From: Microcaecilia unicolor | Lineage: Eukaryota | NCBI RefSeq assembly: GCF_901765095.1 | Contig: NW_021963017.1 | Span: 302,253 to 366,252 of the forward strand | Direction of reading: 5' to 3' | Length of the DNA: 64,000 nt | Shown here: positions 2,896-64,000 of the stretch, piece by piece | How the letters are laid out: each line of letters opens with the position of its first letter | Numbering within the stretch: the stretch's first letter is position 1 | Notes under the pieces: model-generated | What the model was told of the DNA's origin: nothing | The model's input: the letters and a program-made list of their open reading frames with translations, nothing else | The model's database searches: none | Made by a program: the position numbers and the translations under genes

Positions 2896-3606
2896 ATGGT
2901 GCCTCCGTGGGATTTGAAGCTAGTTTTGAATGCTTTGATCAGGCCTCCGTTTGGGCCTCTGGTATCGGCATCTTGTAAGGATTTATCTTTAAAGACGGTC
3001 TTGTTGGGGGCGATTACTTCAGCACGGAGGGTTTCAGAGCTTCAGGCTTTGTCTTGTAGGGAACCATTTTTGTCCTTTCTGAGGGAAAGGTTTCGTTGCG
3101 GACGGTGCTTTCCTTTTTTGCCCAAGGTGGTTTCCGAGTTCCATGTTAATCAGGTCATCTCTCTGCCAGTGTTGGGTGATATGGCTGGAGATTCGGAGCA
3201 ACGTGGTATTGCCAAGCTGGATGTCAGGAGAGTTTTGAGTTGTTATCTCTCTGGAACTCAGGACTTCAGAGCCTCTGACCGTTTGTTCGTTCTTCATGGT
3301 GGCCCAAAGAAGGGTGCAGCGGCTCCTAAGGTGACCATAGCACGGTGGTTGAAGGAGGCGGTTGCATCTGCTTACTTGGTGAAGGGTCCTGTGGTGCCTA
3401 GGGGCTGGTCTGCTCATTCCACTAGGGGAATGGCAGCCTCGTGGGCGGAGAATAGTATGATTTCTCCATTAGATATTTGTCGGGCTGCGGTTTGGTTTTC
3501 GTTGCATTCCTTTGTGAAGCATTATAGGATTCCTGTGCATGCGAAGGACGAGGTGCGCTTTGGGGCAGCTGTTTTGACCTCTGGCCTTAGTAGGTCCCTC
3601 CCGTAA
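2896..3606 (+). CDS. Tyrosine recombinase (integrase-type YR) of DIRS copy A, an uninterrupted 236-aa ORF
   Basis: It contains box I ARRVSELQAL, box II HSTRGMAASWA (His-x-x-Arg) and a C-terminal KHYRIP that is the candidate catalytic Tyr. It is collinear with the disrupted YR of the main copy. Confidence 0.7.
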   Translation: MVPPWDLKLVLNALIRPPFGPLVSASCKDLSLKTVLLGAITSARRVSELQALSCREPFLSFLRERFRCGRCFPFLPKVVSEFHVNQVISLPVLGDMAGDSEQRGIAKLDVRRVLSCYLSGTQDFRASDRLFVLHGGPKKGAAAPKVTIARWLKEAVASAYLVKGPVVPRGWSAHSTRGMAASWAENSMISPLDICRAAVWFSLHSFVKHYRIPVHAKDEVRFGAAVLTSGLSRSLP

Positions 3607-3639
3607 GTTAGTTACTGCTCTGGTACGTCCCACGCGTCT

Positions 3640-3737
3640 TGACCGGTCTGGAGGGTCGCTGAGGAAGGTGAAATTAGATCTTACCTGCTAATTTTCTTTC
3701 CTCTAGACCCTCCAGACCGGTCAAGAGCCCGCCCTGT
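3640..3737. repeat. ICR-like hairpin of DIRS copy A
   Basis: The sequence cttgaccggtctggagggtc (3640-3659) is followed at 3670-3737 by the exact reverse complement of the right terminus at 4128-4186. Confidence 0.6.
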
Positions 3738-4127
3738 CTGTATTGGAGGCCAGGAGGTGTGTTTGTTGGATAATTCTTGGCTGCTGTAGATTGTTGTTTC
3801 TCTAATTGCAGACTCTGTTTATTTCTGTTTTGTGATAGGAGTCTGGGACAGGTGAGGCTCTTCTTTGATAGTCCACCTGTAGAAGCCCAACTGTTTTATC
3901 AAAGGCAAAGGAACATGTTTCCGTAAGAGCAAGCGGAAGATGTTTCTTGTTTTTGCAGTTTACTGTGTCCATGTACAGGGTTGCTAGTTGTTGTTAGTGT
4001 TTTTTGTTTCTCTGCTTTGTCAGGGTTATACTGGCTAGTGGAGGTTCTGCACAGGTTATATATACAGGCTTCAAAAGCTTAGTGTTTTCTCAGTCTCCCT
4101 CTGCTGGTAGGAGGACATAACCCACGC

Positions 4128-4186
4128 GTCTTGACCGGTCTGGAGGGTCTAGAGGAAAGAAAATTAGCAGGTAAGATCTAATTTCA
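4128..4186 (+). repeat. Right terminal repeat of DIRS copy A
   Basis: The sequence is cttgaccggtctggagggtc plus tagaggaaagaaaattagcaggtaagatctaatttcacc. It is complementary to 3670-3737. The same architecture recurs at 8910-8960 and 19858-19920. Confidence 0.55.
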
Positions 4187-9141: not shown

Positions 9142-9228
9142 GTGAAGGAAAAGGACCAGGCTCACCAGGAATACAGACAAGCTGTCAGTGAAGGCCATGG
9201 AGCTTACTTGATGGATCAGGATGCACCG
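9142..9228 (+). CDS. PARP4: PARP4 exon, the region upstream of the VIT domain
   Basis: It translates to VKEKDQAHQEYRQAVSEGHGAYLMDQDAP, which matches human PARP4 ...KEAHQEYSQAVSEGHGAYL.SQDAP. It has an AG acceptor (tttatag) and a GT donor (ccg|gtgtgt). Confidence 0.75.
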
Positions 9229-11914: not shown

Positions 11915-12079
11915 GATGTTTTTACTGTAAGTGTTGGAAACTTGCCAGCAGAAGCTACAGTTCTGATCAAAATCACTTATATCACTGAGCTGAGTATGCA
12001 GCATGGATCTGTATGTTTCCACATACCTGCTGCTGTGGCACCTTGGCAACAGGACAAAGCACTGAAGGAAAATACACAG
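11915..12079 (+). CDS. PARP4: PARP4 exon in the VIT domain
   Basis: It translates to DVFTVSVGNLPAEATVLIKITYITELSMQHGSVCFHIPAAVAPWQQDKALKENTQ. The splice junctions are tttgtag| and cag|gtttgt. Confidence 0.85.
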
Positions 12080-12383: not shown

Positions 12384-12430
12384 GACACTGTAGAGAAGGT
12401 TTATATTAAAGAAGGATGGGCACAAAAAGG
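12384..12430 (+). CDS. PARP4: PARP4 exon that ends at a probable GC donor
   Basis: It translates to DTVEKVYIKEGWAQK plus the first two nucleotides of a Gly codon. Only the donor aag g|gcaagt keeps the frame into the next exon. A conventional GT donor 5 nt downstream gives a stop. Confidence 0.65.
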
Positions 12431-12568: not shown

Positions 12569-12650
12569 GGCATTCTCTTTGGATATGTCTGTTGAAATGC
12601 CGTACAAGATTGAATTCATTTACAGCCTAACACACAACATCAAAATAAAG
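12569..12650 (+). CDS. PARP4: PARP4 exon in the VIT domain
   Basis: It translates to (G)AFSLDMSVEMPYKIEFIYSLTHNIKIK, matching the human SFSLTMSIEMPYVIEF. The junctions are ttcag| and aag|gtaagt. Confidence 0.8.
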
Positions 12651-13285: not shown

Positions 13286-13423
13286 AAAACAGAGTGTAAA
13301 GCTGTGATCAGCACCTGCAAGGACTCTTCATTAGACAGTGATGGCTTTGATTTACGTATATGCATGTGTAAAGCCCACCCTCCCAGAATGTGGGTGGAAA
13401 AGCACCCAGAGCATGAGAGTGAG
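13286..13423 (+). CDS. PARP4: PARP4 exon
   Basis: It translates to KTECKAVISTCKDSSLDSDGFDLRICMCKAHPPRMWVEKHPEHESE, matching the human KTDCKAVIST...LPRMWVEKHPEKESE. Confidence 0.85.
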
Positions 13424-15640: not shown

Positions 15641-16959
15641 TTTCTGTTTCCATCAGGAAAAATGGACATGCATACTTTTCTGCTCCTGGTTCTGAGGCCC
15701 TGCTCCTGGCCAGTTAGTCAACTGGTCTCCCAGTCAAGCTTGGCGGGTAAAGGTCTAGTGGGAGTCATATCTGGTGGTTCCAGATCCCTGTCTCTGTTCC
15801 CCATAGAACCCTCCCCTCTCTGATTTGCCCTCTTCTCTCTCTGGTCCCGCAGAACCCTGCCCTCTTTGTTTTCCTCTCTGCTCTCTAGTGCTGCCGGACA
15901 ACATTAAAGCGGTATTAAAAAAAAAAATAAAGAAAAAAGGGCTCTCTTTATCACAGCAGCTTCCTGGGACACGGAGCAGGCATTGCAGGACTGTACTCCT
16001 GTGCAGCTCTGGGACAGCCCCCAGTCGGGGGGCTGTGAGGTGAGAGGTTTTTCAGGGGTGACAGTGGACTGGGGGGTACCCTGTATTGGAACGGCAGTGG
16101 AGAAGCACTGGGGGCCGGTTTCGGCAGTTTGAAAGAAAAGAAAGGCATGATGTCTGCTCTCCTGGCGTTTTCTACCACGGTGGGGGAAGTGCTCCTGACG
16201 GTCAAGGACTGCAGAGGCTGGGTGTGGCTTCCATCTAGCATGCTTCTGTTTGCTCCTGGCCTGGGGCTACAGTTGAGTGGCTGCTTCTTCCATGGGCTGC
16301 GGCTCCCCTGCCTTTGGCAGTGCTGGGTCAACGCTGGGATCAGTCCCGGTAATGCCGTGTCCCTGCCTTATTTGCTTGCCCTCCTCGGTGTGCCTTGGAG
16401 GGCTGGCGTGCCACTAGTTCTAGTTAAAAAAACAAAAAAACAAACACCCTCAAGATAGTCGCGTGAGCTGGGCTGCTTGTCTCCATCCGGCACTTTGTCT
16501 GGGTTCTTTGGGGGCTGTTGGCATTCCTGGAGGTTTGCTCTGCTGGTCCCCTTTGGGTCACTAAGTCAACCCGTTGCACCTCCCCCCCCCCCCCCCTTTT
16601 GGACCACTTGAAGTGTCTGTGCCTTCTCCTGGTCTGTCTATGCAGTCGCCCTCTGGGGCTGCGGTAGTCGCACAAGGGCTTCAGCCTCTTGTAATTTGTC
16701 CCCGATGTGGTCTTCTCCTTGGTCTTCAGGGGTCCTTGTTTCTTCGTTGTGAAGGTCTCTGACCACCGGCAGTCTCTTTGCTCAGGGCTGCCGTGGTCTC
16801 TTAGAGCTTAGGTCACAGACCTCTCATACTTTTCGGGATAGCAGCAGTAGCCTCCTTTCTGGGGACATTTTTTTTTCCTGTATGTGTCTGTGGCAGCAGC
16901 CACTTCTATTCCACAGAGTGTACTTCTCTGCACCTCTAGGGTGTTTTTTTTCTGGAGAG

Positions 16960-18190
16960 TCTCAGCAGCTTCAGCTGTTTTCTCTGTTGAGAGTTGCAGA
17001 TGCCTCCTGGTTTTCACCGGTACGGCAGTCTCCTCTCTTTGGGATTGCGGGCGCCTCCTGGGCTTTGCAGCCTTGGCAGTCTCCCCTCTGCAGAGTTGCA
17101 GATGCCTTTGGGGCTGCACTGCTGCGGCAGTCTCCTTGCTTCTGAGTGGCGTACCTCTCCTGGTCCTCTCGGCCACAGCAGCCTCCTTTTGGGTGGAGTT
17201 GCAGATGCCTAGGGGCATCACAGCTGCGGCAGTCTCCTCTTCGGAATTGCAGACGCCTATAGGGCTTCATAGCCACAGCAATCTCCTATATGAAGTTGCA
17301 GACACCTCCCGGGCGTCACAGCCATGGCAGTCTCCTCCTTTGGAGTAGCCTAGTGGTTAGTGCAGTGGACTTTGATACTAGTGAACTGGGTTCAATTCCC
17401 AGTGCAGCTTCTTGTGACTCTGGGAAAGTCACTTAACCCTCCATTGTCCCAGGTACAATAAGAACCTGTATATACTATGTAAACCGCTTTGAATGTAGTT
17501 GCAAAATCCACAGAAAGGCGGTATATCTGGTACCAGTCCCTCCCTCCCGGTATTCACAGCCACGGCAGTCTCCTCTTCACAGTTGCAGACACCTCCCGGG
17601 CTTCACAGTCACGGCAGTCTTCTCTTTGGTTTCAAATGCTTCCCGGGCTTCACAGCCACAGCAGTCTTCTCTTCGGAGTTGCAGAGGCCTCCTGGGCTTC
17701 ACAGCCACGGCAGTCTCCTCTTTGGAATCTTAGATGCCTCCTGCACTTCACAGCTACGGTGGTCTTTCCTTCGGAGTTGCAGTCACCTCTTGGCCTTCGC
17801 AGCCGAGGCAGTTTCTCCTTTTCAGGATTGCAGTCACCTCTTGCATTCACAGTCCTGGCAGTCTCCTCTCCAGAGATGCAGTTGCCTCCTGGTCTTCTAG
17901 CTGCTGTTTTCTCCACACTTTGGGGTTGCAGTCACCTCCTCAGCTTCACCATTATGGTAGTCTTTTCTCTTTGGAGTGGTTGTCACCTTTGGGCTTTCCA
18001 GCTATGACGGGCCTCTGTCTTCGGAGTTGCAGGTCACTCTGGTAATCCGTAGTCTTGGCAGTCTCCCTTCCTGGAATCCAGTGGTTTTCTTCTCCAGGGC
18101 TACACACTTCTTGGGGGCAACATACAGCTCTGGAGGTCCTCACTGTTTGCAGTCTCCTCTCTTCTGAGTTGCAGTCTCTTCTCTTGGGAG
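16960..18190. repeat. 48-bp minisatellite array of about 25 units, interrupted by a SINE
   Basis: The unit is cacggcagtctcctcttcggagttgcagacacctcccgggcttcacagc, with variants. A SINE sits at 17342-17527. Six-frame ORFs across the array show repeated peptides and are artefacts. Confidence 0.8.
17342..17527 (+). mobile_element. tRNA-derived SINE inserted into the minisatellite
   Basis: The sequence ggagtagcctagtggttagtgcagtggactttg...gtcacttaaccctccattg...gtaaaccgctttgaatg interrupts the 48-bp periodicity. Confidence 0.6.
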
Positions 18191-19546
18191 TTGAGGTCCC
18201 AGTTTCTGTGGTTGCTGCTGTTCTGAATTGATGCCATTGGGGGTATTTTCTCGGCTACAGGCTTCCCAGTCGGCTCCAGTAGTTCAGTGTTACTGCGGCA
18301 GTCTGCTTTCTCTGGAGTGGCGGACATCTTACAGCTGGAGGTTCGGTCAGCTTCTGCAGTCTTTGGACTTGGGATCTCGTTGGGAATGGCTGATTCATGC
18401 CACAGCGGCGGCCAGAATGTTGAGCTCCTGCCAACACTTGGGGAGAGCAAGTTTCCTCACGGCTCAGCAACGTTGCTGTTGGTGAGGTGGATTTGCCTAA
18501 TCCTCAGTGTGCTCATCCTAGAGCATGGACTCAGTGCAGGTCCTGGAACCTATGTCTGTGGCCAGGGAAGTGGTTCCTGGTGGGGAGGGATAGCTTCTGT
18601 CTATGGCAGTTCTCCCTTCTCTTTCGGTGATCCCCAGCCCCCCAGAGTTGACGCCGGCAGTGGCCTTGGTCCGCCAGGCAGGGCATGCACTGGGAGTTGT
18701 TCCCACAGCCGCCCTCCCTCAAGAGTTCCGCTTCCTATTTTGTATTGGGGCTGGCTACGGCATTCTTCCTTGACTTTCCATACAGAGGAGGTCCCTTCTG
18801 GAAAGAGGTTCGCCTTTGGAACCCCTTTCGAACTTTGTGTTCGGTTTGATTTGTCTGCCTTGTGCTGCGGACTCTGCCACATCTGTCCTTTGGCCCTCTC
18901 CGGAAGGCCAACAATATGGTTCATACGTTGCGTGAGGTGTTTTTGATGTCTCTTACCTCTGGAGTGCGGATTTCTGGGCGCGGTAGTGCTGGGACCTGTT
19001 CCTCTGTTGCCGGAGGCTGGGGTCTCAGTTCTGTCCGTCCCTCTCTGCCTCAGTTGGTTTCAGTATTCCAAGTCAGTTGGTTGGCGTATCATCTGGTGTT
19101 TCGCCGGGATGTTGCATTTCGCCTCACTGAGGCTTCTGGGTGGCCGTTGGAGTTGTTTGCACTTTCTTGAGGCTTCTCCTTCCTTCTGATGTTTGGTTCG
19201 TCTGTTCAGCCCTTTTAGGGATGACAGAGGTTGAGTCTCATGGCGTCCTTGGTCACCTTTGCCTCTTGGTTGGTAGGGACGCTTACTTCAGCTGTCTCTA
19301 CGTGCTGGATAGCAGCATCCTGTGCAGCATCCATCTTGTTGGCCCGGTGGCTTTTGGCAGAGCAGCAACATGGTTGTTATTGTATGCGTTTGCTGGGCTT
19401 CTCAGTGGATATTGTGGCCGTTCGGCGGGGGTGGTCAGGGCTTCGGTTCTCCAGGCAGCGGAGCTGGGGTCCCACCCTGTTAGGATTGCTTTTGAATATC
19501 CCATGTGTCCTGGAATTGTGGGAAGTAACATAATGAAGGAGAAATT

Positions 19547-20513: not shown

Positions 20514-20712
20514 GCATGTATGCTGGTGTTTCAACCCTATTTTGAACCATCCACTTTATTTGAAGTGGATGATTCCAGTGAGATTGTTATTTGTTTGGAT
20601 TGCTCTACCTCCATGGAGGGCTTGATATTCCAGCAGGCCAAGCAGATTGCTCTTCTTGTGCTGAAGTCTCTTAGTGACCGTCACCAAATAAACCTTATCA
20701 GGTTTGGCACAA
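20514..20712 (+). CDS. PARP4: PARP4 exon at the start of the vWA domain
   Basis: It translates to ACMLVFQPYFEPSTLFEVDDSSEIVICLDCSTSMEGLIFQQAKQIALLVLKSLSDRHQINLIRFGT. The human counterpart is ACMLVFQP...EVIICLDCSSSMEG..FLQAKQIAL...NIIQFGT. The donor is a|gtaagt. Confidence 0.85.
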
Positions 20713-21429: not shown

Positions 21430-21497
21430 ATTATCAAGAATTATTTTCCTATCCAAAGAGCACAACAAACCGATCCTTATTGGAAGAATATATTAAA
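21430..21497 (+). CDS. PARP4: PARP4 exon in the vWA domain
   Basis: It translates to (N)YQELFSYPKSTTNRSLLEEYIK, matching the human YKELFSYPKHITSN. The junctions are tttatgtag| and aaa|gtgagt. Confidence 0.8.
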
Positions 21498-21829: not shown

Positions 21830-22017
21830 ATTGCCACACCCACGATGGGTAACACTGACTTGTGGAAACCTTTGCGCTCTTTGAGTTTGTTAGCACCTTC
21901 CGACCGTCTGCGCAACATTCTGCTAATATCTGATGGCCACATTCAGAATGAGAGCCTTACTTTCCAAATTATAAAGAAGAGTATCAAGCACACAAGGTTA
22001 TTTGCCTGTGGTGTTGG
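21830..22017 (+). CDS. PARP4: PARP4 exon in the vWA domain
   Basis: It translates to IATPTMGNTDLWKPLRSLSLLAPSDRLRNILLISDGHIQNESLTFQIIKKSIKHTRLFACGVG. The human counterpart is ATPTMGNTDFWKTLRYLSLL...NILLVSDGHLQDESLTLQLVKRSRPHTRLFACGIG. The donor is gg|gtaggt. Confidence 0.85.
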
Positions 22018-27825: not shown

Positions 27826-27925
27826 TCCCACAGCAAATCGGCATATGCTCAGATCTTTGGCGCAGTATGGAGCTGGAGCATTTGAATATTTTGAAACAAA
27901 ATCTAAGTATAACTGGAAGGATAAA
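27826..27925 (+). CDS. PARP4: PARP4 exon
   Basis: It translates to (G)PTANRHMLRSLAQYGAGAFEYFETKSKYNWKDK, matching the human STANRHVLRILSQCGAGVFEYFNAKSKHSWRKQ. The donor is aaa|gtaagt. Confidence 0.8.
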
Positions 27926-28979: not shown

Positions 28980-29990
28980 GCTTATTTTATAAAGACATAT
29001 CCATGTGTATTTTGGGGCTCTTTTACTAAAGTGAAGTAAGTTTTTTTTTTTTTTTTTTTTGAGGAGGGGGTTTGCACTTACCACACATTAACAGCCAAAT
29101 TTAGTGCATGATAAGTGCACAGGCTTTGTCTGTGCAATAACTGTTGGGGCGTATCCAACATGCCTTCTGCAGTTTCTGCGTAGACACATTTTCTACTAAG
29201 CCTTAACATCAAGTGTGATCAGCAAAGATGCACCTAATGCCACCTCTTGCGGAGACATTAAGTTCACCAGTGCTAACTGCACATTTGACAGCTTTGCTAC
29301 TCACTATGCGCATGCACTCCTACCAGCAGAGGGAGACTGAGAACACTAAACGTCTTATACAAGTAGCCTGTGTAGACCTTCTATTAACCAGTATTTTCTC
29401 AGTCTCAGGAAAGGGTAGATGTGTGCAGCCTGTGCAGTGTACTCAGTCTGGTAGGCCCGTTTGGGGTTTCTAGGTTGGGTTGTAAATGTTAGAGAACCCA
29501 CACTTGGATCTCTATTACAGGGTGTAAGTCCTAAGGGGCTTCTTATTCCCTGTGGGGTGTCACACCCGGGTGGCCGGGTCCCTCCCCCTGTGCTCTTCCT
29601 CTGGAGGACTGCTTGACCTCGGCTACAGACCTCGTTCTGTACCCTTAAGACATTTAGGCATCAGCAACGAGGTTTAAAAAAAAAAAAAAAAATAAACGTT
29701 TTTAAAAGGCGGCTATTTTGGCCGTTCTTGTGGCAGTCCAGAGATAAAACGTCTTCAAGGGCGTTCTTGCCTTAGGCGGTTTTGCCTATTAGTCTGTCAG
29801 AGCACAAAGCAACTGTTTGGTTTTATTGTGTTCGCGGCCATTATGTCTAAGCCGGCGAGGTGTCGGTTTTGCGCGAAGCGCAGCGTTGAAGTGAAAGGTG
29901 ATCTTATATTTAATGTTAATTTCCAATCAAATTACTTAAAAAAGGAGAAAAAAGACTCGTATGTCCCAGCTTGGCAGCATGTAATACATT

Positions 29991-30172
29991 CTTCTCCGAG
30001 GACAAGCAGGCTGCTTGTTCTCACTGATGGGTGACGTCCACGGCAGCCCCTCCAATTGGAAACTTCACTAGCAAAGGCCTTTGCTAGTCCTTGCGCGCCC
30101 ATGCGTACCGCGCATGCGCGGCCGTCTTCCCGCCCGAACCGGCTCGTGTTCGTCAGTCTTCTTTTGTCCGCG
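29991..30172 (+). repeat. Left inverted terminal repeat of the main DIRS copy
   Basis: It reads ttctccgaggacaagcaggctgcttgttctcactgatgggtgacgtccacggcagcccctccaattggaaacttcactagcaaaggcctttgctagtcc.... Its reverse complement is found at 35925-36131. Confidence 0.7.
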
Positions 30173-30569
30173 CTCGGGACGGTCGTGTTTTGCGCCGTTT
30201 CGTGCCCCTCAAAGTTGACCTTCGCGTGTCTTCGCGATTTCGTTTAAAAAAAAAAAAAAAAAAAAGAGAAGACCTCGGTCTTGTCCCTTCCCGTGTGTCC
30301 AGTTTGTTTCCCCGACCTAAGTTTCCTTTCGCTTTCGGGGTAGGCCTTTTTTGGAGCCTCAGTACGGGTTTTTTCTCTCCCTATTTTTGGTGCCCTTAGT
30401 CGCCATTACGAATTTTGATTTCGCCGGCGTGATTTTTCCGCCCATGTCCGAAGTCTCCCAGCGGCTTCAAGAAGTGCACCCAGTGCGCCCGGGTAATCTC
30501 GCTCACTGATAGGCACGCGTCGTGTCTTCAGTGTCTGGGGGCTGGGCACCGCCCGCAGGCCTGTAGTCT

Positions 30570-32678
30570 TTGCGCTCTTTTACAGAAGAGGACTCAGGTT
30601 GCGAGATTGGCCCAGTGGAACGTGTTGTTCTCGGGCTCTTCGTCGACAACAGCACCGGAGTCATCGAGTGCATCGATGTCGGCAGCATCAAGACCTTCGA
30701 CCTCGGCATCGACTGCATCAAGGTATCGACCCTCTGCATCGTCGGTACCGAAATGTCGGTGTCGGTGGTACCGGGACCTCCACTGTTGCTGATGTCGTCG
30801 GACGGTGGTGCTTCGACTGGAGTGCAGGTGAGGGCTGTCCATTCCCCTGCTGGTGGCGGTGAGCCTTCGGGTGGGTCTCCCCCTACCCTGAGGGCTCCTG
30901 CGGTACAGCCCCCCCCCCGAGACCGACCTTCTTCAGCCTCGGCCCCGAGGAAGAGACGGCTGGATTCTACGTCCTCCTCGTCGGTACCGAGAAGCTCCAG
31001 TGACATGCTTCGTTTGAAAAAATCAAAGAAGCATCGACACCGGTCTCCTTCCCGCATCGGTACCGAGAGCTCTGGGTCGCCGAGGGAGTCGGCACCCAGT
31101 AGGCATCGGCACCGGGAGGACCGCTCACCCTCTGTTCAGGAGGTGTCGATGCACTCCACCTTGGACAGCCCGGAACAGCCTCCACGCCCGGAACAGACTC
31201 TGACCTCGACGCCTGCATCGGCTTCCATGTCTTTCTCCACAGCCGCTCTGTACGAGAGTCTCCGGGCCGTTCTCCCGGAGATCCTGGGAGAGCTGTTGCG
31301 CCCTTCCCCTCCGGTACCGGGGGTGCTTGCGCCTCCGGTACCGTTGAGTGAGGCGCCAGCTGGCCCCTTGCCCGGGGTGAGGTCTCCGACATCAGTGCCG
31401 CTTGCGGTACCGACTGCGGCCGCCTCCCAGGAAGGCTCCCCGACGACGTCGGCGGAGGGAGCTTCGCCGGTGCTGGCGAGGGAGTCTACCTCTCGACGCT
31501 CCCACCGTGGCCGTGTTTCCACGGAGTCGAGTCGGGCACGGCTTCAGACACAGGTTCATGAACTTGTGTCTGATACCGATGGTGAGGCCTCGTGGGAGGA
31601 GGAGGAGGACATCAGATATTTCTCTGACGAGGAGTCTGATGGCCTTCCTTCTGATCCCACTCCCTCCCCTGAAAGGCACCTTTCTCCTCCCGAGAGTCTG
31701 TCTTTTGCGGCCTTTGTCCGGGAGATGTCTACGAACATCCCCTTCCTGGTGATTGTGGAGGATGAGCCCAGTGCTGAAATGTTTGAGCTCTTGGACTATC
31801 CTTCTCCACCTAAGGAAGCGTCCACAGTACCCATGCATCATGTCCTAAAAAAGACATTGCTGGCGAACTGGACCAAGCCTTTAACTAATCCCCACATTCC
31901 CAAGAAGATCGAGTCCCAGTACCGGATCCATGGGGACCCAGAGCTGATGCGCACTCAGTTGCCTCACGACTCTGGTGTGGTGGATCTGGCCCTAAAGAAG
32001 GCTAAGAGTTCTAGGGAGCATGCTTCGGCGCCCCCGGGCAAGGACTCTAGAACCTTAGACTCCTTTGGGAGGAAGGCCTACCATTCTTCTATGCTCGTGG
32101 CCAAAATTCAGTCTTACCAGTTCTACACGAGCATCCATATGCGGAACAATGTGCGACAGTTGGCGGGCTTGGTGGACAAGCTCCCTCCTGAGCAAGCCAA
32201 GCCATTTCAGGAGGTGGTCAGGCAGCTGAAGGCGTGCAGAAAATTCCTGGCCAGAGGGGTATATGATACCTTTGATGTTGCGTCCAGGGCCGCTGCTCAA
32301 GGTGTGGTGATGTGCAGACTCTCATGGCTGCGTGCCTCCGACCTGGAGAATAGGATCCAGCAGCGGATTGCGGACTCCCCTTGCCGAGCGGACAACATTT
32401 TTGGAGAGAAAGTCGAACAGGTGGTAGAGCAGCTCCACCAGCGGGATACCGCTTTCGACAAATTCTCCCGCCGGCAGCCTTCAGCATCTACCTCTTCAGG
32501 TAGACGTTTTTATGGGGGAAGGAAGACTGTTCCCTACTCTTCTGGTAAGCGTAGGTACAATCCTCCTTCTCGACAGCCTGCGGCCCAGTCTAAGCCCCAG
32601 CGCGCTCGCTCTCGTCAGCAGCATGCGCCTCAGCAAGGCCCCGCGGCTCCCCAGCAAAAGCAGGGGACGAGCTTTTGA
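30570..32678 (+). CDS. Gag-like ORF1 of the main DIRS copy (702 aa, Ser/Pro/Arg-rich)
   Basis: It is the longest ORF upstream of pol. Its C-terminal part is more than 90 percent identical to the Gag fragment of copy C (61841-62428). It ends at TGA 32676-32678. The first ATG is not certainly the true start. Confidence 0.55.
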   Translation: MRSFTEEDSGCEIGPVERVVLGLFVDNSTGVIECIDVGSIKTFDLGIDCIKVSTLCIVGTEMSVSVVPGPPLLLMSSDGGASTGVQVRAVHSPAGGGEPSGGSPPTLRAPAVQPPPRDRPSSASAPRKRRLDSTSSSSVPRSSSDMLRLKKSKKHRHRSPSRIGTESSGSPRESAPSRHRHREDRSPSVQEVSMHSTLDSPEQPPRPEQTLTSTPASASMSFSTAALYESLRAVLPEILGELLRPSPPVPGVLAPPVPLSEAPAGPLPGVRSPTSVPLAVPTAAASQEGSPTTSAEGASPVLARESTSRRSHRGRVSTESSRARLQTQVHELVSDTDGEASWEEEEDIRYFSDEESDGLPSDPTPSPERHLSPPESLSFAAFVREMSTNIPFLVIVEDEPSAEMFELLDYPSPPKEASTVPMHHVLKKTLLANWTKPLTNPHIPKKIESQYRIHGDPELMRTQLPHDSGVVDLALKKAKSSREHASAPPGKDSRTLDSFGRKAYHSSMLVAKIQSYQFYTSIHMRNNVRQLAGLVDKLPPEQAKPFQEVVRQLKACRKFLARGVYDTFDVASRAAAQGVVMCRLSWLRASDLENRIQQRIADSPCRADNIFGEKVEQVVEQLHQRDTAFDKFSRRQPSASTSSGRRFYGGRKTVPYSSGKRRYNPPSRQPAAQSKPQRARSRQQHAPQQGPAAPQQKQGTSF

Positions 32679-34600
32679 CTGGCTCCACAGAGCATAGCCG
32701 ACATCAACGTATCAGTGCCGGGCGATCTGCCGGTCGGGGGGAGGTTGAAAGTTTTTCACCAAAGGTGGCCTCTCATAACCTCCGACCGTTGGGTTCTTCA
32801 AATAGTCCGGCAAGGATACACCCTCAATTTGGCCTCGAAACCTCCAAATTGCCCACCGTGAGCTCAATCCTACAGCTTCCAGCACAAGCAGGTACTTGCA
32901 GAGGAACTCTCCGCCCTTCTCAGCGCCAATGCGGTCGAGCCTGTGCCATCTGGGCAAGAAGGGCTGGGATTCTATTCCAGGTACTTCCTTGTGGAAAAGA
33001 AAACGGGGGGATGCGTCCCATCCTAGACCTAAGGGCCCTGAACAAATATCTGGTCAAGGAAAAGTTCAGGATGCTTTCCCTGGGCACCCTTCTTCCCATG
33101 ATTCAGGAAAACGACTGGCTATGCTCTCTGGACTTGAAGGACGCCTACACGCACATCCCAATACTGCTAGCTCACAGGCAGTATCTGCAATTTCAGCTGG
33201 GCACACGTCACTTCCAGTACTGTGTGCTACCCTTTGGGCTCGCCTCTGCGCCCAGAGTGTTCACGAAGTGCCTGGCTGTAGTAGCAGCGGCGCTTCGCAG
33301 GCTGGGAGTACACGTGTTCCCCTATCTCGACGATTGGCTGGTGAAGAACACATCCGAGGCAGGAGCTCTACAGTCCATGCAGATGACTATTCGCCTCCTG
33401 GAGCTACTGGGGTTTGTGATAAATTATCCAAAGTCCCATATTCTCCCAGTACAGAGACTGGAATTCATAGGAGCTCTGCTGGATTCTCGGATGGCTCGTG
33501 CCTGTCTCCCAGAGGCGAGAGCCAACAACTTGTTGTCCCTCGTCTCTCGGGTGCGAGCGTCCCAGCAGATCACAGCTCGGCAGATGTTGAGATTGTTGGG
33601 CCACATGGCCTCCACAGTTCATGTGACTCCCATGGCCCGCCTTCACATGCGATCTGCTCAATGGACCCTAGCTTCCCAGTGGTTTCAGGCTGCTGGGGAT
33701 CTAGAAGACGTGATCCACCTGTCCACGAGTTTTCTCAAATCCCTGTATTGGTGGACGATTTGGTCCAATTTGACTCTGGGACGTCCTTTCCAAATTCTTC
33801 AACCACAAAAAGTGCTGACTACGGATGCGTCTCTCCTGGGGTGGGGAGCTCATGTCGATGGGCTTCACACCCAGGGAAGCTGGTCCCTCCAGGAACGCGA
33901 TCTGCAGATCAATCTCCTGGAGTTACGAGCGGTCTGGAACGCTCTGAAGGCTTTCAGAGATCGGCTGTCCCACCAAATTATCCAAATTCAGACAGACAAC
34001 CAGGTTGCCATGTATTACATCAACAAGCAGGGGGGCACCGGATCTCGCCCCCTGTGTCAGGAAGCCGTCAGCATGTGGCTCTGGGCTCGTCGTCACGGCA
34101 TGGTGCTCCAAGCCACATATCTGGTACGCATAAACAACAGTCTGGCCGACAGGTTGAGCAGGATCATGCAACCTCACGAGTGGTCACTCAACTCCAGAGT
34201 AGTGCGCCAGATCTTCCAGGTGTGGGGCACCCCCTTGGTAGATCTCTCTGCATCTCGAGCCAACCACAAAGTCCCTCAGTTCTGTTCCAGACTTCAGGCC
34301 CACTGCAGACTGGCATCGGATGCCTTCCTCCTGGACTGGGGGGAAGGTCTGCTGTATGCTTATCCTCCCATACCTCTGGTGGGGAAGACTTTGTTGAAAC
34401 TCAAGCAAGACCGGGGCACCATGATTCTGATTGCTCCTTTTTGGCCGCGTCAGATCTGGTTCCCTCTTCTTCTGGAGTTGTCCTCCGAAGAACCGTGGAG
34501 ATTGGAGTGTTTTCCGACCCTCATCACACAGGATGAGGGGGCGCTTCTGCATCCCAACCTCCGGTCCCTGGCTCTCATGGCCTGGATGTTGAGAGCATAG
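32679..34600 (+). pseudogene. Pol of the main DIRS copy, comprising RT, RNase H and a C-terminal domain. It is in frame with Gag beyond the TGA. It carries an internal TGA at 32859 and a -1 frame change at a G6 run (33003-33008).
   Basis: Frame 0 reads SVPGDLPVGGRLKVFHQRWPLITSDRWVLQIVRQGYTLNLASKPPNCPP*...LVEKKTGG. Frame 2 then reads MRPILDLRALNKYL...YLDDWLV...TTDASLLGWGAHV.... Confidence 0.7.
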
Positions 34601-34611
34601 ACTTTGCCTCT

Positions 34612-35614
34612 TTGGGTCTGTCAGAGGGTGTCTCCCGTATCTTGCTTGCTTCCAGGAAAGATTCCACTAAGAGGAGTTGCTTCTTTTTATGGAGGAGGTT
34701 TGCCGTCTGGTGTGACAGCAAGGCCCTAGATCCTCGCTCTTGTCCTACACAGACCCTGCTTGAATACCTTCTGCACTTGTCTGAGTCTGGTCTCAAGACC
34801 AACTCTGTAAGGGTTCACCTTAGTGCAATCAGTGCATACCATTACCGTGTGGAAGGTAAGCCGATCTCAGGACAGCCTTTAGTTGTTCGCTTCATGAGAG
34901 GTTTGCTTTTGTCAAAGCCCCCCGTCAAGCCTCCTACAGTGTCATGGGATCTCAATGTCGTTCTCACCCAGCTGATGAAACCTCCTTTGAGCCACTGAAC
35001 TCCTGCCATCTGAAGTACTTGACCTGGAAGGTCATTTTCTTGGTGGCAGTTACTTCAGCTCGTAGAGTCAGTGAGCTTCAGGCCCTGTAGCCCAGGCCCC
35101 TTACACCAAATTTCATCATAACAGAGTAGTCCTCCGCACTCACCCTAAGTTTTTGCCGAAGGTAGTGTCGGAGTTCCATTTGAACCAGTCAATTGTCTTG
35201 CCAACATTCTTTCCCCGTCCTCATTCCTGCCCTGCTGAACGTCAGCTGCACACATTGGACTGCAAAAGAGCATTGGCCTTCTATCTGGAGCGGACACAGC
35301 CCAACAGACAGTCCGCCCAATTGTTTGTTTCTTTCGATCCCAACAGGAGGGGAGTGGCTGTGGGGAAACGCACCATATCCAATTGGCTAGCAGATTGCAT
35401 TTCCTTCACTTACGCCCAGGCTGGGCTGGCTCACAATGTCAGAGTAATGGCTGCGTCAGTGGCCCACTTGAAGTCAGCCACTATTGAAGAGATCTGCAAA
35501 GCTGCGACGTGGTCATCTGTCCACACATTCACATCTCATTACTGCCTGCAGCAGGATACCCGACGCGACAGTCGGTTCGGGCAGTCAGTGCTTCAGAATC
35601 TGTTCGGGGTTTAG
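34612..35614 (+). pseudogene. Tyrosine recombinase of the main DIRS copy, disrupted by a frameshift near 34985 and a TAG near 35095
   Basis: ORF 34612-34998 and ORF 35153-35614 are collinear with the intact YR of copy A. A shifted frame in between reads FEPLNSCHLKYLTWKVIFLVAVTSARRVSELQAL*. Confidence 0.6.
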
Positions 35615-35774
35615 AATCCAACTCCACCCCCCTAGTCCCATGTTTATTCTGTTCCAGGCTACACTCTCAGTTAGTTGGATAAATTGTTAGGTCAATCTCA
35701 GTTATGTCCTCGCCGTTGCGAGGCCCAATTGACCTTGTTTGTTGTTTTTGAGTGAGCCTGGGGGCTAGGGATAC

Positions 35775-35873
35775 CCCATCAGTGAGAACAAGCAGCCTGC
35801 TTGTCCTCGGAGAAAGCGAATGCTACATACCTGTAGAAGGTATTCTCAGAGGACAGCAGGCTGATTGTTCTTA
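35775..35873 (+). repeat. Internal complementary region (ICR) of the main DIRS copy
   Basis: The sequence ccatcagtgagaacaagcagcctgcttgtcctcggagaa is the reverse complement of the left-ITR start. The sequence agcgaatgctacatacctgtagaaggtattctcagaggacagcaggctgattgttcttac is the reverse complement of the right-ITR end. Confidence 0.75.
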
Positions 35874-35924
35874 CAAACCCGCCCGCCTCCCCTTTGGAGT
35901 TGTGTCTTCCCTTGTCTTTGTCTT

Positions 35925-36131
35925 GCTACATATGAGACTGACGAACACGAGCCGGTTCGGGCGGGAACACAGCCGCGCATGCGCGGTACGCATGGGCGCA
36001 CGCGGACTAGCAAAGGCCTTTGCTAGTGAAGTTTCCGATTGGAGGGGCTGCCGTGGACGTCACCCATCAGTGAGAACAATCAGCCTGCTGTCCTCGGAGA
36101 ATACCTTCTACAGGTATGTAGCATTCGCTTT
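35925..36131 (+). repeat. Right inverted terminal repeat of the main DIRS copy, with a 3' extension of about 30 nt
   Basis: It is the reverse complement of 29991-30172. It ends ...ggagaataccttctacaggtatgtagcattcgcttt. Confidence 0.7.
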
Positions 36132-37720: not shown

Positions 37721-37891
37721 GTAAGCGCCCAGGTTTCACGAATGGAATCCCCAGGATGCAGCTCCATTTCTGTGAAGTGGCAACAGTTTAATCCAAATGC
37801 TCCAAGAACCAATGCAAGCGCCTTTTCAAATACAGTCTCTGTTTCGCTGCGAGAGGGTTCTGTTTATGGCTTTATTCCTCATTGCACACAA
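37721..37891 (+). CDS. PARP4: PARP4 exon
   Basis: It translates to VSAQVSRMESPGCSSISVKWQQFNPNAPRTNASAFSNTVSVSLREGSVYGFIPHCTQ. The human counterpart is ...CSPSCHSVSVKWQQLNPDAP...LLVYGFIPHCTQ. The upstream acceptor was chosen because it conserves segment length against human. A second AG 12 nt downstream is also possible. Confidence 0.7.
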
Positions 37892-40097
37892 GTAAGTGAA
37901 CATCATAGGTTTTGTGATGTAAGACTTGTCAGAATAGAGGCTTTTATTTTTTAGCCTCCTGTCAACTAGAGAGTATTCACTTGGGGTCCCCTTTTACCAA
38001 GCTGCTGCAGAAGGGGGCAGACTCTGACATTAGTGCTTGTTTTACACACGCGCCAAGGCCCCCTTTACCGCAGCTGGTAAAAGGGAAGTGCCACCTTCTT
38101 GCAGGAAATGGCCGTTACGGCCATTGAGGTGGCGGTAAGGGCTCCCACGTTAACCCGGCGGTAACCGGACAGTGATTACCGCGGGTACACTCCGATGCTA
38201 CAAAAATAAATTTTTGTAGAGCCGGAAATGATGGCACCTCTTAGGGGTGAGAAGTACCGCTGGGCTGCTGTGCTGTTGCCTGGCGATGCGAGCAGTAAGC
38301 CCACGTGTGGGCTTATCCACGCTTAGTAAAAGGAGCCCTTAGATCTTTGTCAATGGCTCCCATCTGGACATGATACAACTTCTACGTAATTTAAAAAGTA
38401 AATGGCTGCAGTTAAAGACAAGCATGGCTCATCTAGTCTGCCAGGAAGAAGACTATGGTAATACCTGCCACTTCATGCAGGTTATCCTTCTCTGTGCCTT
38501 TAACATAGTAGATGATGGCAGATAAAGACCTGAACAGTCCATCCAGTCTGCCGTACAAGATAAACTCATAGCATAAAATATAATGCGATACTACATATGC
38601 ATACATGATTTTGATGCATACTTTATTTAGAGTTGTACCTGGTGCTCTGTGCCCCCATTTTTTGTTTATTTTATATGTATTATTGTGTTTATATTCTTTT
38701 TTTTAATGCTTGTATTATAAAATAAACTTGTCTATAAACTGCAGTGAACGTGTGAGGGGATATAGCGGTATATAAGAGAAACATTTCCATTGTTTATAGG
38801 GTTGTCCCTTAGCATGGAATTTTGGCAGGCGTCCTGAAAGGAAGGCAAGGATTAAGGCATGGGCAAACTAGGAGTGTCTCTAGGGCCCAAATGTTTAGGA
38901 GGGGGTTCTCACAGATGTTTAATTCAGTAGCTTCCAAGTCCAATTTTTGCCATGGTCAGTTGCTACCAGAGAGAAGAGTGTCCACCGAGATCTGTCTGTT
39001 CCAGTCCCCTGTGCGTTGCTCTCTATTTGCCACAAGTAAGCAAGCCACACTTGTTACCTCCTGTTTCCTCCTCTGCTAGTTTTCCTCTGCAGTCAGAGCC
39101 ACATAGGGCCCTGTTTGTGGGAACTGGGCTAAATTCATTTCCTTAGGGTCCATTAGCGGATTAATCTTTCCTGCTTCCCTTCACAGCATGTCAGGTCATT
39201 GCTTTCTGTCCCATAGCTGGTACGCTGGAGTTGATCTCTGCTTCCTGGCTCCCAAGATCAGTTAATTAAGGAATAGGCATTTTTATAGTACATATCAACT
39301 AAGCTACTTGGGTTGACATTAAAATCTTGACAAAGTTCTGCAAACAGGTTGTTGAGTTTGCTTGTAGAACTGATGCATCCAGATCAGTCCAGGTTCATTC
39401 CAGGTAGACAGACCTCAGATAACATCATAGGATTTTAAGTCTTATTTGTAATAAACAGAAATAAAACAAAATAAAGAAAATAAAACAAAATGATACCTTT
39501 TTTATTGGACTAAATTAATACATTTTGATTAGCTTTCGAAGGGATAATTAGCCTGCCTTGGCAGTTTTCAGTTACCTCACATTCGATTACACAACCTGGA
39601 AGCCCTAGAGGGCATAGTTTCTTATTATACCGTTCTTATTTATAAGTTCTTATTATATAGGAATGCAAGGGTCTGAGCTAGGGCCACGCCTCTTCCCTAG
39701 AACTCCCCTCGGGTACAGCAGCCAAGCCAGAACTCCTTGGGAGGATCCTTGCTCAGGGCGGCTCCTGGAGACTTCTTCCCTCAGGGCTTCCTGATCCATT
39801 CTGCTCCAGGACATTTAACCACCTCCTGGCCTCAGCCCTGCCTCTCTGACTCTGCTTCTGACGTGGCAGGTTAGTGCCATCTGCCGTAAGGCGGCTTAAC
39901 TACAACCTCGGTGAGGGAGTGTTCTCAGGGACACCTGCTGCTATATCGCTCACTCCCTCACAAGGAATGTACTATATATTCAGAATTTGCTCTTAGTATA
40001 GTAAGTTATTTAAAGTGACTGTAAAGGAGAAAACAGAGAGAGGACAAAATATGAAAGTAAAAACACACCTAACAAGCGTTTTCTTTTGAACTTGCAG

Positions 40098-40177
40098 GCC
40101 ACTCTCAATGCTTTATTGATGACGAAGAACTGAGCACAATGGTGTCAACTACTGAATTACAGAAGACCACTGGAACA
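40098..40177 (+). CDS. PARP4: PARP4 exon with an apparent 1-bp deletion. The expected frame is lost after ATLNAL and a premature TGA follows.
   Basis: Frame 0 from the acceptor reads ATLNALLMTKN*. The +1 frame reads HSQCFIDDEELSTMVSTTELQKTTGT. Human PARP4 reads ATLCALIQEKEFCTMVSTTELQKTTGT. Together these imply one missing nucleotide near 40118-40121. The exon is 80 nt against an expected 81. Confidence 0.7.
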
Positions 40178-45467: not shown

Positions 45468-45548
45468 CTACTTCACAAGCTTACAGCACGAGCAATAATT
45501 AAAGATTATGAGCATGGAATTCTTCATGAGAATGAGGCTGAACATGAG
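45468..45548 (+). CDS. PARP4: PARP4 exon
   Basis: It translates to LLHKLTARAIIKDYEHGILHENEAEHE, matching the human MIHKLAARALIRDYEDGILHENETSHE. The junctions are ttctag| and gag|gtctgt. Confidence 0.85.
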
Positions 45549-47662: not shown

Positions 47663-47758
47663 ATGAGGAAACAAGAATTAAAGTCACTTATAATTGAGCT
47701 TAGCAAGGAGTACTCCATTGTGACTCAGTTCACAAGTTTTGTAGCCATTGAGGAAAGG
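47663..47758 (+). CDS. PARP4: PARP4 exon
   Basis: It translates to MRKQELKSLIIELSKEYSIVTQFTSFVAIEER, matching the human MKKQTLKSLIIKLSKENSLITQFTSFVAVEKR. The junctions are ttctag| and agg|gtatgt. Confidence 0.85.
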
Positions 47759-52639: not shown

Positions 52640-52822
52640 GGTTCCGAGATAACGCCACAGCCTGACATTCCAAACATTAAAGAACTTATAGCCAAAGAAG
52701 ATATAGATCTCCTGCCTTATATGGACTGGGAAATGAATGCTAATAAATACGGGAACTTGGCAAATGATTTATGTGTTAAAGACGACTCTCTGGATGGATT
52801 TGATGACAACTTCTTTACAGAG
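52640..52822 (+). CDS. PARP4: PARP4 exon
   Basis: It translates to GSEITPQPDIPNIKELIAKEDIDLLPYMDWEMNANKYGNLANDLCVKDDSLDGFDDNFFTE, matching the human ...PFPDIPKVSELIAKEDVDFLPYMSW.... The junctions are aactag| and gag|gtaaat. Confidence 0.8.
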
Positions 52823-53788: not shown

Positions 53789-54506
53789 GATTATGAAGAT
53801 TCAGATGCAATGTCACTTGGAATATCAGATGAAAGCTTCGTGTTTACACGTGGCCTAGTAAACAGTCCAGCGCCACTTATTTTGGATGATATGTTGCAAT
53901 CAGCAGCCTTTCCTCCCTCTGTTAGTTCTCCTTTTTCCTCCTCCTCCTCCTCCTGGTCTTCCACTAATCCGTCCAATTTGTTTAGCAGCCTCTCCTCCCT
54001 GTTCTGGTTCTTCTGCTGCTGCTGCTCCTCCTCCTCCTCCTCTTCCTCCCTGTGCTGGTTCTCATGTTGTTGCTGCTCCTGCTCCTCCCTGTCCTGGTGC
54101 TCCTGCTGCTCCTCCTCCTCCTCCTCTTCCTCCCTGTGCTGGTTCTCCTGTTGCTGCTGCTGCTGCTCCTGCTCCTCCCTGTCCTGGTGCTCCTGCTGCT
54201 CCTCTTCCCCTTCCCTCTCTTGATCTTCCTAAATTTATGGTGGCTCCTCCTCCTCCTCCTCCTTTTCCTCTTCTTTCTCTTGATCTTCCTAAATTTATGG
54301 TGGCAGAAAGTGACAAGATGCCTGAATTTCCAGAAGTGTCATTTTCCTCAAAAAAGAAAATACGGAAATATGTTCAGTTGCCATCTGAATATCAAGTTTC
54401 CAAGTCCAGTGATTTTGATAAGGAGTCAAATTTCTCTGCTCCTCCGCCTCTTCCTGCACATCTTGTTTTGCCTGGCTCGAAAACTAAACATACTAGTCTA
54501 CGAATG
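53789..54506 (+). CDS. PARP4: Large PARP4 exon containing a CT-rich coding tandem repeat that encodes a Pro/Ala-rich low-complexity tract. Its start and end are in different reading frames.
   Basis: The acceptor ctcactag| gives DYEDSDAMSLGISDESFVFTRGLVNSPAPLILDDMLQ... in frame 2. The donor cgaatg|gtaaga closes ...KFMVAESDKMPEFPEVSFSSKKKIRKYVQLPSEYQVSKSSDFDKESNFSAPPPLPAHLVLPGSKTKHTSLRM in frame 0. The exon length of 718 nt is not a multiple of 3. Confidence 0.6.
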
Positions 54507-61192: not shown

Positions 61193-61328
61193 AAAGCAGT
61201 TACTACTGATGAAGAAGCATCTCAAGTCGGTATAAAAAGCTTCCAGGAACCACAGGATTTAGATGTAGCTGCATCTTATTCTTTCACGTCTGCTATATGT
61301 AACAAGAAGCTACAAACTGCTGGAGCAA
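61193..61328 (+). CDS. Candidate downstream PARP4 exon. Its assignment to PARP4 is not verified.
   Basis: An open frame reads KAVTTDEEASQVGIKSFQEPQDLDVAASYSFTSAICNKKLQTAGA. It is bounded by tactag| and a|gtaagt. Its composition is acidic and exon-like, but I have no direct homology anchor for it. Confidence 0.3.
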
Positions 61329-61828
61329 GTAAGTACTGGTCTAAATTCTAACAATATTATTGTGTTAGAAATTCTGTTGACAGTTATATGACAAAGATCT
61401 TTGTCTCTATCACAGGATCTCAAGAATGTTAATCTTTTAGATACATTAACTAACTTGAATCAATACCACTACCAACTGTATACACATCAAGGAACTTGAA
61501 ATAGTGTCCAAATGCATTGTATCGTAGATCAAATGTTTCATTTTGTGAATTATAAACAATGCACAGGTATGTCATAAATACAAGTCATACTGATTTTGTA
61601 GTTGGGTGAGGATCCTGTCCCAAAGTGCTTACCATTTAACTAGGAAGAAAGGGTGACATACAAAAGATGGTTTTAAGAGTAGTACCTTGAGCACAAAGGT
61701 GGGTTTTCTAGAGGTTATTAGAATGCTTGTTTGAAGAAGCATTTTTTCAGATAGGACTTCCCATGAGGGGCTTCTTGCATATTGTAAAAGAGAGAAAATT
61801 TAGAAGGTATTTTGAGTATTGATATGTC

Positions 61829-64000
61829 TACCATTCCTCTATGCTCGTGGCCAAAATTCAGTCTTACCAGCTCTACATGAGCATACACATGCGGAACAAT
61901 GTGCGGCAGTTGGCGGGCTTGGTGGACAAGCTCCCTCCTGAGCAAGCCAAGCCATTTCAGGAGGTGGTCAGGCAGCTGAAGGCGTGCAGAAAATTCCTGG
62001 CCAGAGGGGTGTATGACACCTTTGATGTTGCGTCCAGGGCCGCTGCTCGAGGTGTGGTGATGCGCAGACTCTCATGGCTGCATGCCTCCGACCTGGAGAA
62101 TAGGATCCAGCAGCGGATTGCGGACTCGCCTTGCCGTGCGGATAATATTTTTGGAGAGAAGGTCGAACAGGTGGTAGAGCAGCTCCACCAGCGGAATACC
62201 GCTTTCGACAAGTTCTCCCGCCAGCAGCCCTCAGCTTCTACCTCCACAGGTAGACGTTTTTATGGGGGAAGGAAGACTGTTCCCTACTCTTCTGGCAAGC
62301 GTAGGTACAATCCTCTTTCTCAACAGCCTGCGGCCCAGGCTAAGGCCCAGCGCGCTCGCTCTCGTCAGCAGCGTGCGCCTCAGCAAGGCCCCTCGGCTCC
62401 CCAGCAAAAGCAAGGGACGAGCTTTTGACTGGCTCCAGCAGAGCATAGCCGCCATCCAAGTGTCAGTGCCGGGCGATCTACCGGTCGGAGGGAGGTTGAA
62501 AGTTTTTCACCAAAGGTGGCCTCTCATAACCTCCGATCAGTGGGTTCTTCAAATAGTCCGGCAAGGATACACCCTCAATTTGGCCTCCAAACCTCCAAAC
62601 TGCCCACCGGGAGCTCAGTCTTACAGCTTCCAGCACAAGCAGGTACTTGCAGAGGAACTCTCCGCCCTTCTCAGCGCCAATGCGGTCGAGCCCGTGGGCC
62701 GGGCAAGAAGGGCTGGGATTCTATTCCAGGTACTTCCTTGTGGAAAAGAAAACAGGGGGATGCGTCCCATCCTAGACCTAAGGGCCCTGAACAATATCTG
62801 GTCAAGGAAAAGTTCAGGATGCTTTCCCTGGGCACCCTTTCCCCATGATTCAGGAAAACGATTGGCTATGCTCTCTGGACTTGAAGGACGCCTACACGCA
62901 CATCCCGATACTGCCAGCTCACAAACAGTATCTGCGATTTCAGCTGGGCACACGTCACTTCCAGTACTGTGTGCTACCCTTTGGGCTCGCCTCTGCGCCC
63001 AGAGTGTTCACGAAGTGCTTGGCTGTAGTAGCAGCGGCACTTCGCAGGCTGGGGGTACACGTGTTCCCATATCTCGACGATTGGCTGGTGAAGAACACAT
63101 CCGAGGCAGGAGCTCTACAGTCCATGCAGATGACTATTCGCCTCCTGGAGCTACTGGGGTTTGTGGTAAATTATCCAAAGTCCCATCTTCTCCCAGTACA
63201 GAGACTCGAATAGGAGCTCTGCTGGATTCTCGGACGGCTCATGCCTATCTCCCAGAGACGAGAGCCAACAACTTGTTGTCCCTCGTCTCTCGGGTACGAG
63301 CGTCCCAGCAGATCACAGCTCGGCAGATGTTGAGATTGTTGGGCCACATGGCCTCCACAGTTCATGTGACTCCCATGGCCCGCATTCACATGAGATCTGC
63401 TTCAATGGACCCTAGCTTCCCAGTGGTTTAAGGCTGCTGGGGATCTAGAAGACGTGATCCACCTGTCCACGAATTTTCTCAAATCCCTGTATTGGTGGAC
63501 GATTTGGTCCAATTTGACTCTGGGACGTCCTTTCCAAATTCCTCAGCCACAAAAGTGCTGACTACGGATGCGTCTCTCCTGGGGTGGGGAGCTCATGTCG
63601 ATGGGCTTCACACCCAGGGAAGCTGGTCCCTCCAGGAACGCGATCTGCAGATCAATCTTCTGGAGTTACGAGCGGTCTGGAACGCTCTGAAGGCTTTCAG
63701 AGATTGGCTGTCCCACCAAATTATCCAAATTCAGACAGACAACCAGGTTGCCATGTATTACATCAACAAGCAGGGGGGCACGGATCTCGCCCCCTGTGTC
63801 AGGAAGCCGTCAGCAGGTGGCTCTGGGCTCGCCGTCACGGCATGGTGCTCCAAGCCACATATCTGGCAGGCGTAAGCAACAGTCTGGCCGACAGACTGAG
63901 CAGGATTATGCAACCTCACGAGTGGTCGCTCAATTCCCGAGTAGTGCGCCAGATCTTCCAGGTGTGGGGCACCCCTTGGTAGATCTCTTTGCATCTCGAG
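61829..64000 (+). mobile_element. DIRS-like retrotransposon copy C. It is 5'-truncated in mid-Gag, degraded, and runs past the window end.
   Basis: It is about 90-95 percent identical to 32068 onward in the main copy. The Gag tail is at 61841-62428, RT fragments at 62262-63431 (with deletions and frame changes), and RNase H at 63492-63982. Confidence 0.8.

Follow-up and report, generated by a model that had tools for sequence, protein, structure and literature searches.

Read at face value, the exon at positions 40098-40177 of the Microcaecilia unicolor stretch analysed here would imply the loss of the vault PARP in an amphibian: it belongs to a conserved part of PARP4, is one base short and runs into a premature stop codon. 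The question that this locus raises is whether the animal carries a truncated PARP4 or whether the base is missing only from the sequence record. We examined the whole stretch of 64,000 nucleotides (the window; contig NW_021963017.1, positions 302,253 to 366,252 of the forward strand), comparing its translation with the annotated M. unicolor PARP4 protein. The lesion in this exon, exon J, is most likely a consensus or assembly artefact, with nothing novel in it.

Results

PARP4 in the window and its same-species reference protein

Exons were sought by tblastn with a human PARP4 sequence, which served as a lead only; the conclusions rest on database proteins. An earlier search with a 311-residue spliced query had returned fragments only, the best of them from tuatara (61%). 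A HMMER search of 1.84 billion representatives, seeded with P0017, a fragment of snake PARP4, yielded numerous full-length PARP4 proteins, the closest representative being that of Rhinatrema bivittatum at 82% identity. A profile search with the frame-restored window protein and the Rhinatrema protein retrieved XP_030058252.1 (P0183), named [quoted passage not shown], which has 1976 amino acids and contains BRCT (4-92), PARP (420-597), VIT (645-762) and vWA (907-1055) domains. Sixteen window exons are collinear with residues 712-1562 of this protein, with PARP4 proteins as their best matches; the portion of PARP4 found in the window comprises only the end of the VIT domain, the vWA domain and the region that follows. 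The exons other than I and J, which are described below, are as follows.

9142-52822, plus strand: extent of PARP4 exons A-M, a 14-exon model in which the matches were read individually and the phases checked
9142-9228, 11915-12079, 12384-12430 and 12569-12650, plus strand: remaining PARP4 exons, intact
13286-13423, 20514-20712, 21430-21497 and 21830-22017, plus strand: remaining PARP4 exons, intact
27826-27925, 45468-45548, 47663-47758 and 52640-52822, plus strand: remaining PARP4 exons, intact
53789-54506, plus strand: large proline-rich exon of PARP4, 718 nt long where XP_030058252.1 implies 726 nt
61193-61333, plus strand: next PARP4 exon after the large exon, identical to residues 1516-1562 of XP_030058252.1

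The 12 remaining exons of the 14-exon model are identical to XP_030058252.1 save for an ATG at 52733-52735 (M in the window, R in the protein), and 12 of the 16 exons are perfect. Intron phases are consistent everywhere in the 14-exon model but at exon J. All acceptors are AG and all donors GT, with the exception of a single GC donor at 12431 (GG/GCAAGT, the slash marking the junction). The 47-nt exon at 12384-12430 stays in frame only with this GC donor, as a GT four bases further on breaks the frame, and this GC-AG junction is consistent with both XP_030058252.1 and the Rhinatrema PARP4.

Exon order and intron phases are alike in the window and in the PARP4 of all three caecilians compared, with identities after frame restoration of 100% or near 100% for M. 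unicolor (XP_030058252.1), 86% for Geotrypetes seraphini (XP_033803644.1) and 82% for Rhinatrema bivittatum (XP_029458356.1). Unlike these orthologues, the literal window sequence has four frame breaks and does not encode the protein; it holds no uninterrupted PARP4 frame, being broken in exon J and again in the large exon.

Exon J is one base short in a run of T

The features of the flagged exon are these.

40098-40177, plus strand: PARP4 exon J, 80 nt, defined by its splice sites, its phases and the 27 amino acids present in orthologues
40112-40114, plus strand: run of three T where XP_030058252.1 requires four; insertion of one T reproduces the protein exactly
40131-40133, plus strand: TGA stop in the splice-defined frame, ending the frame-0 reading ATLNALLMTKN

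Exon J lies between the acceptor cttttgaacttgcag and the donor gtaagatt, and encodes residues about 1129-1155 of XP_030058252.1, just C-terminal of the vWA domain. Entered in phase 0, it reads ATLNALLMTKN and stops, while its +2 frame reads HSQCFIDDEELSTMVSTTELQKTTGT, with the conserved text DDEELSTMVSTTELQKTTGT beginning at 40118, one base out of frame. Because the exon before it (37721-37891) ends in phase 0 and the exon after it (45468-45548) starts in phase 0, the length of exon J must be a multiple of three. In the alignment of orthologues, 27 residues are present in 19 of 19 sequences, from amphibians, reptiles, mammals and others, giving an expected length of 81 nt. An ancestral length of 81 nt in turn implies that one base has been lost from the window sequence between codons 6 and 8. 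The second half of the exon, TMVSTTELQKTTGT, is nearly invariant across tetrapods, a match far beyond chance.

At the site of the deficit the window reads GCTTTATTG, with its three T at 40112-40114, where XP_030058252.1 requires GCT TTT ATT G (A-F-I). Inserting a T there turns GCT TTA TTG ATG into GCT TTT ATT GAT, and this is the sole single-base insertion that yields A-F-I-D. The original prediction had recognised from the sequence a conserved PARP4 exon of 80 nt in place of an expected 81, a stop in its splice-defined frame and a return to collinearity on addition of one base, and each of these points was borne out: orthologues carry the exon, it has 27 residues in all of them, the TGA stands at 40131-40133, and an added T reproduces XP_030058252.1. 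The position proposed for the missing base, within ttta-ttgat, was misplaced, as the actual site is the T-run at 40112-40114 and not beside that A. An alternative acceptor giving an in-frame exon had also been envisaged, and none restores the frame.

The annotated protein of the same species reads through the flagged site as ATLNAFIDDEEL, its exon J being ATLNAFIDDEELSTMVSTTELQKTTGT. The corresponding comparison with related species, which had been suggested alongside the prediction, found the PARP4 of Geotrypetes (P0184) and Rhinatrema (P0032, P0182) likewise intact, with 27 in-frame residues at exon J. XP_030058252.1 contains no X residues and has no LOW QUALITY prefix, which other PARP4 entries listed alongside it do bear. 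Gnomon gives a "low quality" label to models whose frameshifts had to be corrected (Merfin preprint, bioRxiv 10.1101/2021.07.16.452324), and an unlabelled, X-free XP_030058252.1 therefore implies that the genomic sequence behind the model has an 81-nt exon.

Three further single-base indels in PARP4 coding sequence

Beyond the flagged site, the window carries three more 1-nt indels, two in exon I and one in the large exon, that the original prediction had missed. Those of exon I are located as follows.

37721-37891, plus strand: PARP4 exon I, upstream of exon J, 171 nt, entered and left in phase 0, with two compensating 1-nt indels
37804-37805, plus strand: extra A in exon I, the window having CCAAGAA where XP_030058252.1 requires CCA GAA
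37861-37862, plus strand: missing base in a Leu codon of exon I, the window having GTTCT-GTT against GTT CTN GTT, by reduction of either G2 to G1 or T2 to T1

A three-frame reading of exon I gives SVKWQQFNPNAP, then EPMQAPFQIQSLFRCERVL in another frame, then VYGFIPHCTQ in the first frame again, such that 19 codons are out of frame, with RTNASAFSNTVSVSLREGS in place of EPMQAPFQIQSLFRCERVL. Tuatara, snake, human, Rhinatrema and XP_030058252.1 all follow EPMQAP...ERVL in the middle of this exon, and undoing both indels restores XP_030058252.1 exactly. The +1 and -1 changes lie 56 nt apart and compensate each other, which keeps the 171-nt length and leaves the frame open. With frames restored, the window translation of exons A-M is identical to XP_030058252.1 bar one residue, the protein having ...IPHCTQATLNAFIDDEELSTMVSTTELQKTTGTLLHKL...

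The differences in the large exon fall at 53927-53956 and about 54093-54140. Its frame is lost at 53932-53954: T5(CCT)6 stands in the window in place of the T4(CCT)8 that the protein requires, a net gain of one T and loss of two CCT units. Near 54111-54125 the window has one codon fewer than XP_030058252.1 and one P/R difference; the P/R change sits inside a 90-nt tandem repeat. The in-frame parts of these large-exon differences look like true allelic repeat-length variation. Over the 848 codons compared, the window thus differs from XP_030058252.1 by four 1-nt indels, two in-frame repeat-length differences and two amino-acid substitutions. All four indels fall at same-base runs: a gained A at 37804/5 (A1 to A2), a base lost at 37861/2 (doublet to single), a T lost at 40112-14 (T4 to T3) and a T gained at 53932-36 (T4 to T5).

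The M/R difference at 52733-52735 and the repeat-length and P/R differences in the large exon mean that the window is not the source sequence of the RefSeq model. At this locus, the window and the annotated sequence clearly come from different haplotypes, versions or individuals. At 52733-52735 the window has ATG (Met) where XP_030058252.1 has Arg; Met is also found in Geotrypetes and Rhinatrema, and the window therefore carries the ancestral state at this codon.

Splicing as a possible rescue

The end of exon I carries tandem donors at 37892-37900 (CAA/GTAA/GTGAAC), the second of which adds 4 nt and formally offsets a 1-nt deficit. The deletion in exon J could accordingly be real yet harmless, either through use of the +4 donor at 37895 (GTGAAC), which would give ...HCTQVSHSQCFIDDEELSTMV... 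and keep the frame open through exons J and K, or through skipping of exon J, which would be in frame given that exon I ends and exon K starts in phase 0. We regard either route as extremely improbable. The canonical donor CAA/GTAAGT matches the consensus almost perfectly, and the donor at +4 is a weak one; XP_030058252.1 uses the canonical junction and has the residues ATLNAF where the +4 donor would yield VSHSQCF; skipping would remove TMVSTTELQKTTGT, which tetrapods hardly vary; and neither route would repair the frameshift in the large exon.

Constraint on PARP4 and the spectrum of lesions

Whether the other exons show relaxed constraint bears directly on the reality of the lesion, and we found no sign that they do. 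The rate of protein change in the window PARP4 equals that of the Rhinatrema PARP4. Tajima-type relative-rate counts of window against Rhinatrema were balanced across 16 outgroups (e.g. 29 vs 24, 27 vs 24 and 22 vs 22), with no significant excess in 15 of the 16 comparisons and a chi2 above 3.84 only with P0038 (4.79). At sites invariant in the other 17 sequences, 1 of 123 is changed in the window, as many as in Rhinatrema.

Substitutions generally outnumber small indels several-fold, and neutral decay that had collected four frameshifts would be expected to bring tens of substitutions with it. With 10 replacements expected, the computed probability of seeing three or fewer is about 0.01, and with 20 expected it is about 3e-6. 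With four frameshifts against few substitutions, the spectrum of lesions is not pseudogene-like. The excess of indels over substitutions, together with the lack of relaxed constraint, is at odds with neutral decay and fits errors in a long-read consensus.

Unitary pseudogenes and lineage-specific losses of vault components offer a natural comparison, the shared feature being an early stop in a vault-gene exon that is otherwise conserved. The window PARP4 differs from them in its unrelaxed constraint, its indel-only spectrum and the absence of the lesion from relatives and from the annotated protein. That is, the lesion is found neither in XP_030058252.1, which reads through all four sites, nor in Geotrypetes or Rhinatrema, and neither relaxed constraint nor a substitution-dominated spectrum was seen in the window exons. 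The original prediction had offered two readings of exon J, an assembly indel or a truncating lesion. The first is favoured by the same-species read-through, the three additional indels and the constraint on the gene; the second, a truncated vault PARP, found no support.

DIRS elements and other features of the window

An intron of PARP4 houses a full-length DIRS-type retrotransposon of the tyrosine-recombinase class at about 29990-36100. Its inverted terminal repeats lie at 29992-30159 and at 35935-36101, and two of its ORFs, of 702 and 641 amino acids, are unbroken. Two further DIRS copies are present, a partial one of 95% identity at the window end (61828-64000) and a more divergent one at about 200-4200. 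In caecilian genomes, DIRS elements rank second in abundance among transposon types (PMC10195157), and their presence in the window fits a caecilian source. Two 1-nt deletions, both at same-base runs, interrupt the recombinase ORF of the intronic element, at 34985-34995 (CCTCCTTTGAG where TTTT is expected) and 35085-35095 (CTGTA where CTGGTA is expected), the expected letters being taken from frame continuity and from the divergent copy at the window start. These deletions are of the same kind as those in the PARP4 exons and could reflect either genuine decay of the element or additional errors in the consensus. They prompted us to consider a single low-quality stretch at 34.9-40.2 kb, an idea that we dropped given the further frameshift at 53.9 kb. 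A comparison of the DIRS copies at 32078-34259 and 61828-64000 gave 90 mismatches (66 of them transitions) and 9 gaps, an ordinary ratio that is uninformative either way. Another PARP4 intron contains a GC-rich block (16800-18200) with tandem repeats of 49 and 96-102 nt (17055-17897).

Discussion

We consider it very probable that the shortfall in exon J is a homopolymer-length consensus error, and that PARP4 is intact and under purifying selection in M. unicolor. In the consensus of this sequence version, a TTTT would have been called as TTT, producing the 80-nt exon; counting this site, the window would have at least four 1-nt errors of homopolymer length in PARP4 coding exons. The errors probably originated in long-read consensus calling or through insufficient polishing, as might happen in an alternate haplotig or where polishing was locally poor. 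From the sequence comparisons we infer that the indels are errors absent from the DNA of the animal rather than true variants. For the M. unicolor genome, PacBio CLR reads were assembled by FALCON and FALCON-Unzip into primary contigs and alternate haplotigs, and polishing used Arrow followed by two rounds with 10x reads (PMC10195157); the window presumably comes from this project. Residual frameshifting indels in some genes are a known feature of assemblies with a CLR backbone (Merfin preprint, 10.1101/2021.07.16.452324).

The window resembles VGP-type assemblies affected by homopolymer errors of long reads (PacBio CLR or ONT) in having single-base length changes at same-base runs. The likeness extends to the occurrence of several such changes in one gene, the predominance of indels over substitutions, their absence from an independent sequence of the same species, and the CLR-based construction. 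The window departs from the Q40 average claimed for the assembly, as four errors in about 2.5 kb of PARP4 exons are well above it. An error density of this order means that the window must be a less polished version, either locally or globally; an alternate haplotig would be one example. Homopolymer errors mixed with a few true differences between alleles (M/R, P/R and microsatellite length) are what would be expected of a less well polished haplotype or version.

Two observations weigh against consensus error. The window does differ from the annotated protein in the M/R and P/R residues and in microsatellite length, and the indels could in principle be haplotype variants as well. In addition, the density of errors would be uneven, given that two DIRS ORFs at 30.6-34.6 kb, of 2.1 and 1.9 kb, contain no break; these ORFs, together with the ordinary 9:90 ratio of gaps to mismatches between DIRS copies, indicate that the window is not indel-ridden throughout. 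That the indels are real, and represent either one haplotype whose PARP4 is a null allele disrupted several times or a non-functional duplicate of very recent origin, is nevertheless very unlikely in our judgement.

Taken separately, a genuine PARP4 null haplotype, in the sequenced individual or in another M. unicolor, seems to us very unlikely. It would place a stop after the vWA domain, with loss of the C-terminal vault-binding part, and its transcript would probably be degraded by nonsense-mediated decay. The substitutions and in-frame repeat-length changes relative to the annotated protein do look like true allelic variation. PARP4 is also not universally essential, several eukaryotic lineages having lost their vaults (PMC4038475). 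Against this, four independent frameshifts alongside two substitutions and an unrelaxed constraint would be very unlikely for real mutations, and 4/4 of the indels lie at same-base runs.

The window could instead be a second, decaying copy rather than the functional locus, either a PARP4-like pseudogene from a recent segmental duplication or a haplotig that was duplicated falsely, which we hold to be highly improbable. One source names XP_030058252.1 "PARP4-like", a form of naming that can reflect ambiguous orthology, and the window and annotated sequences are not identical. However, the 90% cluster of XP_030058252.1 has a single member, so no second M. unicolor PARP4 is found there, nor is a further one among the best 120 matches listed. 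The splice sites and 12/16 exons are perfect, and the ratio of indels to substitutions is far from that of neutral decay. Even if the window were a retained haplotig, failure of polishing would still be the simplest cause of the indels.

Our literature search found no report of PARP4 pseudogenisation in amphibians, and the caecilian genome paper (PMC10195157) does not mention PARP4. A homologue search with the intron-flanked ORFs of exons I and J, aimed at read-derived M. unicolor contigs, returned matches from other species only.

The flagged site and the three other indel sites are concrete candidates for assembly correction. They also call for caution in gene-loss scans that use CLR-based assemblies or their alternate haplotigs, where an independent sequence of the same species, the ratio of indels to substitutions and a relative-rate test are needed. 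Were the truncation true, about 820 C-terminal residues would be lost. In human PARP4, the C-terminal part includes the region that binds the major vault protein. Were the indels true, this caecilian would be a natural heterozygous knockout of the vault PARP, and a hint that PARP4 may be dispensable in the lineage.
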